Shown: in pieces, positions 35,588 through 40,148 of the stretch
How the letters are laid out: each line of letters opens with the position of its first letter
Numbering within the stretch: position 1 is the first letter of the stretch
Origin: an uncultured Chloroflexia bacterium
GTDB taxonomy: Bacteria; Chloroflexota; UBA6077; JACCZL01
Assembly (NCBI GenBank): GCA_963765765.1
Contig: CAVXYC010000015.1
Span: 128,001 to 192,000, forward strand
Direction of reading: 5' to 3'
DNA: 64,000 nt
The notes under the pieces: model-generated
Databases searched by the model: none
What the model was told of the DNA's origin: nothing
What the model saw: the letters and a program-made list of their open reading frames with translations, nothing else
Program-made: the position numbers and the translations under genes

Positions 35588-35908
35588 ATGGCCAAACTGA
35601 TCTACGACGCGTGTACGTCGCTCGATGGTTATGTTGCGGATGAAAACGGCAACTTCGATTGGGCGGAGCTGGATGACGAAGTCTATGCCTTCATTAACAA
35701 CCGCGAGAGGCAGATCGGCACCTATCTCTTTGGGCGCAAGATGTATGAGACGATGGCCGTTTGGGAGACGCCAGAGGTCATTCCGGATCCCCCAGCAGCC
35801 GCGCTGGAGTTCGTACCGATCTGGCAGGCGGCTGAAAAGATCGTGTACTCGGGAACGCTGCAGACGGTCTCTACGGCCGATACGCGGCTCGAGCGGAAGT
35901 TCGATTGA
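35588..35908 (+). pseudogene. Dihydrofolate reductase/RibD-C family, C-terminally truncated
   Basis: SLDGYVAD, LFGRKMYE, KIVYS; stops before the GG motif. Confidence 0.75.
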
Positions 35909-36121
35909 TAGCTGGACTGCGGGTCGCGTGCACGCAGTTTCAACCCGAATCGGATTAAAGGCACGCTGTTGCTCACGTGGTATGCTCCTGTCACCCCCGC
36001 GGACGCTGACATGCTCTGAGCCATTCAATCAGCGCTGGATACCGCGTGCGGCGCACCACGGCCTCCCAGCCGTCTTGTGGACGGGATGCTCACCTGACAG
36101 AATGGATAGAGCATGTGCGCA

Positions 36122-36769
36122 ATGACACACTCGAACCCAAACGATACGGAGCCTATTCATTTCGCGGGTGGGGTGCTCGACAAGTATCGGCACGTGTGTG
36201 CGTTCTTTCCGGCGCCTGACGATGAGCACCGCGTGCTTGACCCGTACGTCCGCGAGGGACTCCATCGTGGCGAGAAAGCATTTCACATCGTAGATCCCGC
36301 TTTGCGCGATGACTACGTGCGCCGTCTCGCTGCAGCCGATATCGACATCGTCGACGGTATGTCGCGTGGTCAGTTCGAGCTGTGCACCTGGGACGAGGCG
36401 TACCTTCGCAATGGGCATTTCGACCAGGATTCCATGCTTGCCCTTATTCAGGAGGTATTGGACGGCGGGCGGCAAGCGGGATACCCTCTCACCCGCCTCG
36501 TGGCACACATGGAGTGGGCCCTCGAGGACCGTCCCGGAGTGGACGATCTCGTGGAATACGAAACGCGCCTTAACTATGTCTTACCGCGCTATCGGGACCC
36601 GGTCATATGACTGTATGAGACCGCCAAGTTTGGCGGCGGCATCGTGATGGACATCTTGCGCACGCACCCAATGGCAATCATGGGTGGGGTGTTGCGCGAG
36701 AATCCGTTCTTCGTTCCTCCGGATGAGTTTCTCCAGGAACTTCGCGAACGCGCGCGCGACCGTGCATGA
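36122..36769 (+). CDS. MEDS-domain sensory protein with in-frame TGA (36608-36610), candidate selenocysteine
   Basis: HVCAFF, YLRNGHFD, MEWAL, EYETRLN, then DPVI*LYETAKF...DILRTHP...ENPFFVPPDEFL in the same frame. Confidence 0.85.
36611..36640 (+). promoter_or_regulatory. Putative bacterial SECIS element
   Basis: TGA + 10 nt + CCGCCA-AGTT-TGGCGG hairpin; loop starts after a 16-nt spacer from UGA, with G in position 2. Confidence 0.55.
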
Positions 36770-36799: not shown

Positions 36800-38503
36800 G
36801 TGTCGGAGCGAGAGGTATCACGGGCGGCGGAAGGGGATCCGGCGCGCGAGTTGGCGGCGCTGCTCGCATTACCGGCGACGTGGAAAGGATGCGAGCCGGC
36901 TGCCATCGCGACCAGCATGCTCGACGCACTTGTGAGCCTTCTGCGCCTCGACATCGCTTACCTCGATCTCGATGACGGCCGCGTCGAGCGTGCGTGGCCA
37001 CCGGCCACGAGGTTCCCGCCGAAACTGGCTGACGTGGTGCGGGCGCGAATCGAGGATGGCGATATCGCTCCGATCCTAACCACGCCAGATCCGGCTCGTG
37101 ACGGAGCATTTCGGGTCGCCGGCCTCGCTCTCAAGCCGATGGGCCACGCTGGGCTCATCGCGGTTGGTTCCCGGCGTCCCAGCTTCCCAAGTCCGTTCGA
37201 GTCGTTCTTGCTGAGCATGGCGGCGGAGCAGGCACTCATCGCAATCGACACGGCGTTGCTGATCGCGCGAGAACAACGGCGCGCCCGACAACTGCGCGCA
37301 CTCACGGAGGCCGCAGCAGACATTAACGCCGCTGTGAGCACCACGGAGGCGCTGCAGCGCATCACGGACCGGGCTCGGGACATTATTGGTGCACACCAGG
37401 CGATGACGAGCCTTTCAGTGGACCAGGCAGCCGCGCCAGAAATCACCGCCATCTCCTTCTCGAGCAAGTACGAGCGCCACCGAAGCACCACGGTAGACCG
37501 CAGCCGATCGGGCTTAAGCGCACTCGTCTGTCACGAAAATCGGCCATATCGGCTGACACACGAGGAGCTCCTGAGCCACCCGGCCTGGCGCGGCGGTGAT
37601 CACGGAGATCAAGAACGCCCGCCGCTGCGCGGCTGGCTGGCCGCTCCGCTGATCGGGCGGGATGGGGAAAACCTGGGGCTGATAGAGCTCTCGGATCGCA
37701 ACCGCGGCGACTTCACGGAGAACGATGAAGCGATCCTAGTGCAGCTCGCGCACCTGGCGTCGGTGGCAATTCAGAATACTCACCTCTACGAACAAGCGCG
37801 TCGGGCTCTAAGCCTTCGCGACGAGTTCCTGGCGCAGGCGGCTCACGAGCTGAAGTCGCCCCTGACAGCCCTGAAGGGATACGTTCAGCTCTCTGCACGC
37901 CGCGGAGGGGCGGACCCGTTCAGTGCTCGCATGGTGACCCAGGTGAACCGCCTCGATCGTCTCGTTGGTGACCTTATCAGCGTGGTTCGGCTGGAGACTG
38001 GACAGCTCGAACTGGTTCGTCAAGAGACAGACCTCATCACCGTTGCGGAGTCCTGCATCGGTGCGGCTCAAGCCCTATCCGTGCGTCACGTTATCAGTTT
38101 GGAGTGCGCCCCAGCCTCGCTGGTTGGGAGGTGGGACCCGGATCGTCTGACCCAAGTGTTTGAGAACTTGCTCGCAAACGCGGTTAAGTACTCGCCGGGT
38201 GGAGGTGAGATCCGTGTCCAAATTCGAATGGTGGGGGCGGAGGTCCGCGTTTCGGTGCACGACGCTGGAGCGGGGATCGCAGCAGATGTGCTCCCCCGAT
38301 TGTTCGAGCGATTCTACCGGGCCCCAAGTGTCGCGCGTGAGGTCGACGGGCTCGGACTCGGACTGACGATCACGCGATCGATCATAGAAGGGCACGGGGG
38401 CCGGATTTGGGCGGAGAGCGCGGGCGAGCAGCGGGGCAGCACGTTCGCCTTCACGTTACCGCTAAATCGACTCCACACGCGGACAGGCGAGTACAGCGGC
38501 TGA
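36800..38503 (+). CDS. GAF-domain sensor histidine kinase
   Basis: RGWLAAPL..GDFT..DE GAF; AHELKSPL H-box; NLLANAVKY, D.G.GI, GLGLGL. Confidence 0.92.
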   Translation: MSEREVSRAAEGDPARELAALLALPATWKGCEPAAIATSMLDALVSLLRLDIAYLDLDDGRVERAWPPATRFPPKLADVVRARIEDGDIAPILTTPDPARDGAFRVAGLALKPMGHAGLIAVGSRRPSFPSPFESFLLSMAAEQALIAIDTALLIAREQRRARQLRALTEAAADINAAVSTTEALQRITDRARDIIGAHQAMTSLSVDQAAAPEITAISFSSKYERHRSTTVDRSRSGLSALVCHENRPYRLTHEELLSHPAWRGGDHGDQERPPLRGWLAAPLIGRDGENLGLIELSDRNRGDFTENDEAILVQLAHLASVAIQNTHLYEQARRALSLRDEFLAQAAHELKSPLTALKGYVQLSARRGGADPFSARMVTQVNRLDRLVGDLISVVRLETGQLELVRQETDLITVAESCIGAAQALSVRHVISLECAPASLVGRWDPDRLTQVFENLLANAVKYSPGGGEIRVQIRMVGAEVRVSVHDAGAGIAADVLPRLFERFYRAPSVAREVDGLGLGLTITRSIIEGHGGRIWAESAGEQRGSTFAFTLPLNRLHTRTGEYSG

Positions 38504-38758
38504 TGTAGACCTTCCGGCTCGCCATCAGCCACGGCGACAAGTCATCTCGTACGCGGGCAGAGGCAGTTTATCCAGAGCAGACCCGAACTCGGGCCGATCA
38601 GTGAGTCACCCGTTGCGGCGCCCGTGCCCTCAAGCACGGCGTGGTGCTCACGAGAGCCTGCGACGGAACAATCGCAGATCCGATGCGCCGCCCATTGCGT
38701 CGTGGCCCGGAAGGTGCATCGTGAGTGTAGCGAGCGGCTCGCCCGCGATCGGATCATC

Positions 38759-39142
38759 ATGCTCTGCAACCATTCCGTACTCCTCGTCGACGATCATGCC
38801 GATATACGAGACATCCTGAATTTCGTGCTTGCGGACGAGGGCTACAACGTTCTAAGTGCAAAGAATGGCGTTGAGGCCCTTGAAATGGTTCGAGACGACA
38901 CCTTCGCCGTCATCTTGATCGATGTCCAGATGCCGGTCATGGACGGCGTGGAATTCATTCGCAGATACCGGGCACTGCCGGGCCACAAGGCACAACTCAT
39001 CATCATGACTGCGGGCCAGAACGCGAAGATGTACGCCGAACTAGTCGGCGCTGATGCCTATCTCGCGAAGCCGTTTGAGCTCGACGATGTGCCCGAGATC
39101 GTGGGCAAGCTTGCTGGCAGAGTGTCGACGGACAGATGTTAG
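38759..39142 (+). CDS. Single-domain response regulator
   Basis: LLVDD, IDVQMPVMDG, MTA, KPF. Confidence 0.92.
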   Translation: MLCNHSVLLVDDHADIRDILNFVLADEGYNVLSAKNGVEALEMVRDDTFAVILIDVQMPVMDGVEFIRRYRALPGHKAQLIIMTAGQNAKMYAELVGADAYLAKPFELDDVPEIVGKLAGRVSTDRC

Positions 39143-40061: not shown

Positions 40062-40148
40062 TGGTGCCGGGGACGGGATTCGAACCCGTACGCCCTCGCA
40101 GGCAGCGGAGTTGAAGTCCGCCGAGTCTGCCGTTTCACCACCCTGAGC
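40062..40148 (-). tRNA. Degenerate tRNA-Leu-like gene with nominal anticodon UCA
   Basis: GCTCAGGG TG GTG AAACGGCAGA CTC G GCGGA CTTCAAC TCCGC, long variable arm, ACGGG TTCGAAT CCCGT, CCCCGGC A CCA; mismatches in acceptor and D stems. Confidence 0.8.

Follow-up and report, generated by a model that had tools for sequence, protein, structure and literature searches.

The window analysed here is a 64,000-nucleotide stretch from the genome of an uncultured Chloroflexia bacterium (G000:C15:128001-192000, where G000 is the source assembly), and it contains a gene for a MEDS-domain protein with an in-frame TGA that, on comparative evidence, is very probably a genuine selenocysteine (Sec) codon accompanied by a SECIS (selenocysteine insertion sequence) element. 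The explanation that best accounts for the locus as a whole, in which the Sec codon and its SECIS belong to a MEDS sensor whose output is a neighbouring histidine kinase, is highly probable. The recoding mechanism is the ordinary bacterial one, and what is new is the host protein. The elements of the gene are the following.

36113..36769 (+): predicted MEDS-domain selenoprotein gene, 218 codons with Sec as codon 166, starting at ATG 36113 or ATG 36122
36608..36610 (+): UGA codon predicted to be read as Sec (U166), in the column of the deeply conserved MEDS Cys
36611..36766 (+): post-UGA coding sequence, 52 codons that would complete the MEDS fold (remainder of strand 164-169, helix 170-182, RTHP motif, two strands and C-terminal helix)
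36621..36636 (+): SECIS-type hairpin CCGCCA-AGUU-UGGCGG, within codons +4 to +9 after the UGA, its core CGCCA/UGGCG and loop conserved
36767..36769 (+): true stop (TGA) of the MEDS gene

The reading frame is as an earlier note, made from the letters of the window alone, had described it: the open reading frame (ORF) stops at DPVI-TGA, its upstream part ending in RYRDPVI, and the same frame is then open for 52 further codons (LYETAKFGGGIVMDILRTHP...ENPFFVPPDEFLQELRERARDRA). The read-through product matches PF14417 (MEDS) with 131.6 bits against a cut-off of 29.8, and the match covers profile positions 1-161 of 161. Both the TGA and the hairpin are unchanged in a soil-metagenome contig of the independent run X2, which spans 36305-36690 with 4 differences from the window.

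For a comparison across genomes, one genome per species was scanned and the best 80 of 166 relatives were kept, among which the aligned column holds TGA in 75, TGC in 4 and TGT in 1 (for two of them, L073 and L078, the column was settled by tblastn); the identities for the TGA loci are 62-74%. By their bin labels, which are possibly wrong on short contigs, the TGA forms come from at least nine phyla: 53 are Acidobacteriota (including two Candidatus Acidoferrum), 5 Rokuibacteriota/Methylomirabilota, 4 Myxococcota, 3 Chloroflexota, 3 Binatota and 2 Pseudomonadota, with one each from Gemmatimonadota, Dormiibacterota, Armatimonadota and an unclassified bacterium, plus L078 (Terriglobales). A set of 41 related genomes includes orthologues with a single in-frame TGA from two further families of this order, in G026 (73% identity) and G036 (67%). 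In the protein database, the 120 listed homologues (60-71% identical, about 215-230 residues long) have Cys at this column in 115 cases, Trp in 3 and Tyr in 1, and the last one ends at DPVI. The claim of the earlier note that the TGA stands at a conserved Cys is therefore upheld by these 115 proteins, by the 5 Cys forms among the 80 loci and by both Cys paralogues, one in this genome (G000:C27) and one in G026 (G026:C289), and homologues of the kind it proposed to look for, with TGA at the Cys column and conserved coding sequence downstream, make up 75 of the 80 loci. The three database proteins with Trp at the Sec column (P0013, P0016 and P0035) are full-length, and they are probably TGA forms that the gene caller translated with a code in which TGA is Trp.

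Conservation of this Cys extends to remote members of the family. Ten MEDS homologues that are 26-37% identical all keep H27, C29 and W135, and the 8 distant homologues that align over the later columns all keep C166 and the His of RTHP, so that the TGA stands in for a residue that is among the few to be conserved throughout the MEDS domain family. On a FastTree phylogeny of 193 rows, computed with the Sec/Cys column masked, the minimum number of Sec/Cys exchanges is 20, with at least 5 forced by well-supported branches alone, and repeated exchange of this sort is usual in selenoprotein families. On this tree the window protein forms a group with L045, a Chloroflexota locus whose contig is that of G026:C398. 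In 200 genomes sampled evenly from the phylum of G041 there were 5 matches at E<=1e-50, two with one TGA, one with a TAG and two with no stop. Sec-MEDS is widespread across phyla and sparse within them, patchy and not universal, and this patchiness, taken with the 62-74% identity between phyla, suggests that the Sec forms may have moved by horizontal transfer. The TAG-containing member of the phylum sample, G118:C6:106506-107129, is a 53%-identical MEDS homologue with the TAG within the matched stretch.

The RNA around the UGA was compared in a stack of 75 Sec forms in register, which consists of the window and 74 loci and holds 65 distinct rows. Residues +1 to +45 after the UGA are conserved across these forms and are written with 2-6 synonymous codons each, and this combination of conserved amino acids and varying codons implies that the ribosome continues past the UGA. 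The hairpin, with its 5' arm CCGCCA at 36621-36626, loop AGTT at 36627-36630 and 3' arm TGGCGG at 36631-36636, starts 10 nucleotides (nt) past the TGA and its loop starts at 16 nt, both distances being those that the earlier note had given. In the bacterial SECIS model the apical loop contains a G and lies about 16-37 nt after the UGA, and the AGUU loop, which has a G, falls within this spacing. RNAalifold returns as its consensus for the 75 Sec forms exactly this hairpin, with 6 pairs and the loop AGUU. Five of the stem pairs are invariant and the sixth (20:35) covaries, being UG in 39 forms, GC in 23, CG in 8 and UC, which is broken, in 5; this covarying pair also accounts for a linked pattern of amino acids, in which forms with Leu or Thr at +4 mostly have Gly at +9, and those with Cys at +4 have Ala at +9. 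A 7-pair version has 91.2% of its cells paired, and this figure drops to 38-54% if the 3' partner is shifted 1-3 columns out of place; the observed covariation score was reached by 0 of 500 shuffles.

A codon test on the same 75 forms points in the same direction. Codons -40 to +45 include 80 positions with synonymous alternatives, and, where a single-codon call counts the sequences carrying the majority residue, a single codon is found at only 4 of these 80, namely +5 GCC, +6 AAG, +7 TTT and +8 GGC, which are consecutive and make up the stem and loop. The remaining 76 positions use 2-6 codons each, with a major-codon fraction of 0.32-0.98, and the TTT fixed at +7 is found in a gene that elsewhere favours TTC for Phe. 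The same hairpin core is present in L078, which is outside the 75-row stack, and the 14-nt core is kept in 0 of 5 Cys forms, whose codons at +5 to +8 read TCC AAG TTC GGC, GCC AAA TTT GGG, CCG AAA TTT GGC, TCC AGG TTC GGC and ACT AAG TTC GGC. The hairpin on a single sequence is weak evidence, and it is the comparative data that raise it far above chance: judging by these alignments, it is under nucleotide-level (RNA) selection, and in the Sec forms only.

The immediate context of the codon is also uneven in composition. Where Sec forms have an Ile codon directly before the UGA (36605-36611 in the window), 91% of these codons are the rare ATA, and at least 90% of Sec forms have an A as the base that follows the UGA; in the five Cys forms the codon before the Cys is ATC, ATC, GTT, ATT and ATA. 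The ATA before and the A after the UGA may be a recoding context effect.

The assembly G000 (6.49 Mb in 33 contigs, 91.84% complete, 6.85% contamination) carries selA (472.7 bits), which adjoins selB (312.4 bits, or 337.1 with its C-terminal piece) on contig C14, as well as two further genes with an in-frame Sec codon, which are listed here together with a tRNA in the window that bears on the question of Sec decoding.

G000:C21:109702-110619 (+): selD, with one TGA at the canonical GAG-U-ACK site and a hairpin 7 nt after the UGA
G000:C15:217264-220269 (-): formate dehydrogenase (FDH) alpha subunit, on the window's contig, with ARI-U-H and a hairpin 11 nt after the UGA
40062-40147 (-): tRNA(UCA), called "tRNA-SeC(tca)" by ARAGORN, 3.3 kb from the MEDS gene

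The MEDS hairpin, at 10 nt compared with 11 nt in FDH and 7 nt in selD, therefore fits this organism's own usage. The set of selA, selB, selC and selD that the earlier note had named as the one to look for in these genomes is present in G000 as far as selA, selB and selD are concerned, and selC was not found. Among six other TGA-form genomes tested, a strong SelA match is present in four (G026, G036, G041 and G042), and among the four Cys-form genomes tested SelA is present in two, with none in the other two. The tRNA(UCA) at 40062-40147 was considered as selC and rejected: Rfam gives a generic tRNA at 33 bits and no tRNA-Sec match on that strand, the sequence is 90% identical to this genome's own tRNA-Leu(UAA) (C20:72131-72211), and G001, of the same genus, has an intact tRNA-Leu(taa) as its counterpart. 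Relative to tRNA-Leu the anticodon has gone from TAA to TCA, the D arm is changed, and the 5' acceptor strand has an inserted base and a substitution that break 2 of 7 pairs; a scan of 60 other loci with their 3-kb flanks called no UCA-anticodon tRNA. This element is not selC but either a duplicate in decay or an opal suppressor that inserts Leu, and the ARAGORN "SeC" label on a mutated tRNA-Leu is an annotation trap.

AlphaFold2, given an alignment of 37 sequences (31 Sec forms with TGA read as Cys, 4 Cys orthologues and 2 paralogues), returned a model of the MEDS protein with a predicted local distance difference test (pLDDT) of 89.5 and a predicted template-modelling score (pTM) of 0.86, for which the top Foldseek matches in the PDB are FlaH, KaiC, SSO2452, PH0284 and RecA, with E values of 2e-6 to 5e-4 and template-modelling (TM) scores of 0.5-0.6. 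The protein resembles the KaiC/FlaH/RecA ATPases in this predicted fold (FlaH 4yds, KaiC, SSO2452, PH0284) and in weak SSO2452/KaiC profile matches, but it differs from them in having no Walker A motif and is only 9-16% identical. Its identification as a P-loop ATPase was rejected, as the fold is similar but the first core strand, 27-32, is followed by PAPDDEH in place of GxxxxGK[ST], and with this segment standing where the P-loop would be the protein is probably not a nucleoside triphosphatase. The modelled product is probably a stand-alone KaiC/RecA-like fold that has lost its P-loop. In the model, U166 and C29 each occupy the third position of a strand, 164-169 and 27-32 (HVCAFF) respectively, and H185 is in the loop following helix 170-182. 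The invariant alignment columns include H27, C29, W135, C/U166, Y168, R183, T184, H185 and N197, and the predicted Sec is at one of four deeply conserved positions, H27, C29, C/U166 and H185. The RecA-type sheet has the strand order 5-1-4-3-2, from which it follows that the strands of C29 and U166 should be neighbours, with the two residues side by side.

A number of observations weigh against reading the TGA as a Sec codon in a complete sensing site. Comparable perfect hairpins follow 39 of the 1994 TGA trinucleotides on both strands of the window (2.0%), and the 81-nt fold at 36600-36680 is no better than its shuffles (z = -0.43). The stem is short, with 5 invariant pairs and 1-2 more, and because most of its pairs never vary they are silent on whether pairing or primary sequence is constrained. 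Contigs of two RNA libraries cover 36030-36367 and 36960-37164 only; they do not reach across the UGA and are no proof of transcription. SelA was not found in the TGA-form metagenome-assembled genome (MAG) G043, and the MAG G048 has only a 44.6-bit match. The most conspicuous gap is the canonical tRNA-Sec gene selC, which was not found in the 91.84%-complete G000 by any route tried: RF01852 gave no match at E<=1e-8, with only 123-150 of about 835 candidates scored; under default settings ARAGORN calls nothing but the tRNA-Leu derivative described above; two relaxed ARAGORN candidates, on C7 and C11, failed Rfam; no selC was found within 20 kb around selAB or around selD, or in a scan of G000 for the anticodon-loop/T-loop motif; and the G000 flank that is syntenic with selC of the same-genus G001 (C20:868039-869507) has no tRNA-Sec after it. 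Canonical tRNA-Sec is found with RF01852 in 19 of 20 relatives, at 62-74 bits. We attribute the gap to incomplete assembly because the selD and FDH genes of G000 themselves need Sec decoding, and selC may be missing from the assembly and not from the organism. Finally, the proximity of C29, U166, H27 and H185 in the predicted fold, with H27 on the face of C29, is inferred from strand topology.

Against this background there are three other ways to explain the TGA. The simplest is that it is a nonsense mutation or an assembly error and that the MEDS gene is a pseudogene, which the 6.85% contamination of the source MAG, the other lesions that the earlier note mentions in the window and the hairpin, a 2% event on one sequence alone, would allow. 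The comparative data effectively refute it, as the same TGA is found in 75 of 80 loci of other genomes and on the independent metagenome contig, purifying selection acts on the codons after it, the synonymous sites of the hairpin are conserved, and the 62-74% identities exclude that the 75 loci are copies of one contaminant, so that on aligned sequences this explanation has practically no chance of being correct. Another explanation is that the UGA is read without Sec machinery, by a near-cognate tRNA or by the tRNA(UCA) at 40062-40147 inserting Leu, which would leave an ordinary residue at 166. Bacterial leucyl-tRNA synthetase is not known to read the anticodon, and this UCA-anticodon tRNA, 3.3 kb downstream, is derived from tRNA-Leu with A73 kept; the canonical selC not found in G000 and the three database proteins with W at the column speak for the same explanation. 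However, the acceptor stem of this tRNA has lost 2 of its 7 pairs and its D arm is weakened, none like it was called in the 60 other loci with their 3-kb flanks, and Leu, Trp or another residue would displace one that is Cys in 115 of 120 listed homologues. In addition, the SECIS-type hairpin is conserved in the TGA forms only, and selD and FDH of G000 need real Sec decoding, all of which makes non-Sec read-through very unlikely.

The remaining explanation concerns not the decoding but its purpose. The UGA might be mainly a regulatory checkpoint, at which a 165-residue inactive fragment results unless selenium and Sec-tRNA are present, and the module would then report selenium status instead of using the selenol for chemistry. 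Sec insertion competes with termination by release factor 2 (RF2), the MEDS protein is a regulator and not an enzyme, and the ATA before the UGA in 91% and the A after it in at least 90% of Sec forms suggest a tuned context; a Sec recoding efficiency of 30-40% is quoted in the abstract of PMC4513850. Such control could, however, sit anywhere in the gene, and the recoded site is instead a Cys that is conserved in distant MEDS and lies beside conserved His and Cys, as would be the case for a functional residue; the repeated Sec/Cys interchange is likewise typical of catalytic Sec/Cys pairs. We consider a checkpoint improbable as the main role of the UGA, and it is compatible with the preferred reading, in which U166 is a functional Sec. 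The Sec-containing sensory domain that the earlier note had proposed is supported by the conservation of the UGA, the Sec/Cys pairing, the selection on the hairpin and the presence of selA, selB and selD.

The genes that follow the MEDS gene on the same strand suggest where its signal may go.

36800..38503 (+): sensor histidine kinase, 567 residues, with a GAF-like N-domain, then GAF, HisKA and HATPase_c (Pfam), 30 nt after the MEDS stop
36845-37324 (+): GAF-like N-terminal domain of the kinase, residues ~16-175
38624..39142 (+): receiver-only response regulator (PF00072, 85.7 bits, residues 52-159)

Kinase residues 1-180 match no Pfam family even at E<=10, and the AlphaFold2 model of this N-terminal region (pLDDT 84.9) has Foldseek matches dominated by GAF domains, with TM scores of 0.45-0.6. 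Synteny was followed in 79 loci, which include the window's own locus and leave out L073 and L078. A same-strand gene about 200-270 nt past the Sec codon, with an N-domain homologous to kinase residues 16-175, is found in 70 of the 79, and the first ~160 residues of these downstream genes are 28-38% identical to that part of the kinase; kinase-like ORFs of varied length follow MEDS in 66 of the 79. Residues F129, P130 and Q144 of the N-domain are invariant next to MEDS genes across phyla. A receiver gene after the kinase is visible in only 6 loci, as the flanks end at 3 kb. The pairing of MEDS and kinase is thus conserved across phyla, which argues that MEDS acts on the kinase through this special N-domain. 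From gene order and sequence the kinase at 36800..38503 is the probable signalling partner of the MEDS protein, and we lean towards the view that the two are a functional pair. Upstream of the MEDS gene, a 106-residue ORF at 35588-35908 (+) matches only positions 2-84 of 197 of the RibD_C profile and is possibly a broken gene.

The proposed mechanism begins with the hairpin (core CGCCA-AGUU-UGGCG), which would act as a bacterial SECIS while the ribosome sits on the UGA, recruiting SelB with its Sec-tRNA(Sec), so that Sec would be inserted and translation would continue for 52 codons to the stop at 36767-36769. In the finished protein H27, C29, U166 and H185 would form the sensing site and the selenol would do the chemistry: it might pair reversibly with C29 as a selenenylsulfide, react with an oxidant or electrophile, or serve as ligand to a metal or cofactor. 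The downstream kinase would then receive the state of MEDS through its GAF-like N-terminal domain, and from the kinase to the receiver protein at 38624-39142. That MEDS is specifically a redox or electrophile sensor is a tentative proposal, to which we give somewhat less than even weight. More speculative still, and on balance doubtful, is the wider idea that MEDS domains are generally covalent chemical sensors and not reversible ligand binders, in which oxidants or small electrophiles would be attacked directly by Cys/Sec166 with the help of H27, C29 and H185, and the Sec forms would be high-reactivity versions, acquired horizontally by soil bacteria, that switch a partner kinase via its GAF-like docking domain. 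Cys-type MEDS regulators have reported links to dichloromethane and epoxyethane, with which this covalent-sensor idea agrees, and if it is true, a covalent Sec-MEDS switch of a kinase would make this the first case of a selenol gating a two-component pathway.

The E. coli fdhF gene is the prototype of those selenoprotein genes of bacteria in which SelB reads a SECIS located inside the ORF. The MEDS gene is similar to such genes, including fdhF and this genome's own selD and FDH, in having the UGA at the position where homologues have Cys, a short hairpin with a G-containing loop, Sec/Cys interchange, and selA, selB and selD. It differs from them in that its host is a sensory or regulatory domain beside a histidine kinase and not a redox enzyme, and in that its SECIS has a short stem and a sequence that is near-invariant across phyla, which may point to horizontal spread. 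Fomenko et al., in Science in 2007, are said to have used Sec/Cys pairs as markers of redox-active cysteines; by the same logic C166 of MEDS is marked as chemically active, with the difference that here it lies in a sensor domain without known chemistry.

In comparison with Cys-type MEDS proteins (PF14417: DcmR, RsbA-type anti-sigma factors and Mycobacterium EtnR), the window protein shares the H-x-C of strand 1, W135, C/U166, the His of RTHP and N197, and it shares a presumed sensory role in a signalling module, as the sections of PMC11507031 on these proteins describe it. It is unlike them in having Sec, in being a stand-alone domain with no helix-turn-helix, HATPase or kinase fusion, and in having a partner kinase with a special GAF-like N-domain. 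Assignment to the RsbA family of anti-sigma factors (NF041045, NCBIfam 20.0) was rejected, with 45.2 bits against that model's cut-off of 210 and a match that covers only positions 1-175 of its 303; nothing follows the MEDS domain in the protein, and the C-terminal kinase-like half of RsbA is absent. MEDS is treated in the relevant sections of the literature as a predicted sensor of small hydrocarbon derivatives whose ligand site is undefined (PMC11507031; bioRxiv 10.1101/2024.10.04.616672).

The remark in the earlier note that MEDS is not among the established selenoprotein families agrees with Table 1 of a 2026 review, whose 119 families do not include it (PMC13188914). Redox enzymes, handlers of metal or sulfur and transporters make up the overwhelming majority of that table, and FmdB is the only one named there as regulatory (PMC13188914). 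Nor does the word MEDS occur in the main text of the papers on deep-Sep and BSepDB, of Peng et al. 2016 or of the preprint by Haft & Gwadz (PMC12013277, PMC13326102, PMC5029168, bioRxiv 10.1101/2022.07.06.499078), whose supplements, like the BSepDB web lists, could hold an entry. A full-text literature search found no paper that pairs MEDS or DcmR with selenocysteine, Haft & Tolstoy 2025 being covered only via the review's table.

Sec in a signal-sensing domain that is wired to a histidine kinase would extend selenium biology to signal transduction. Because gene callers cut Sec-MEDS genes at the UGA, annotation of soil metagenomes misses part of the family, most of all in Acidobacteriota. For the poorly understood MEDS family, which includes DcmR, RsbA and EtnR, the finding would provide a concrete and testable active residue.

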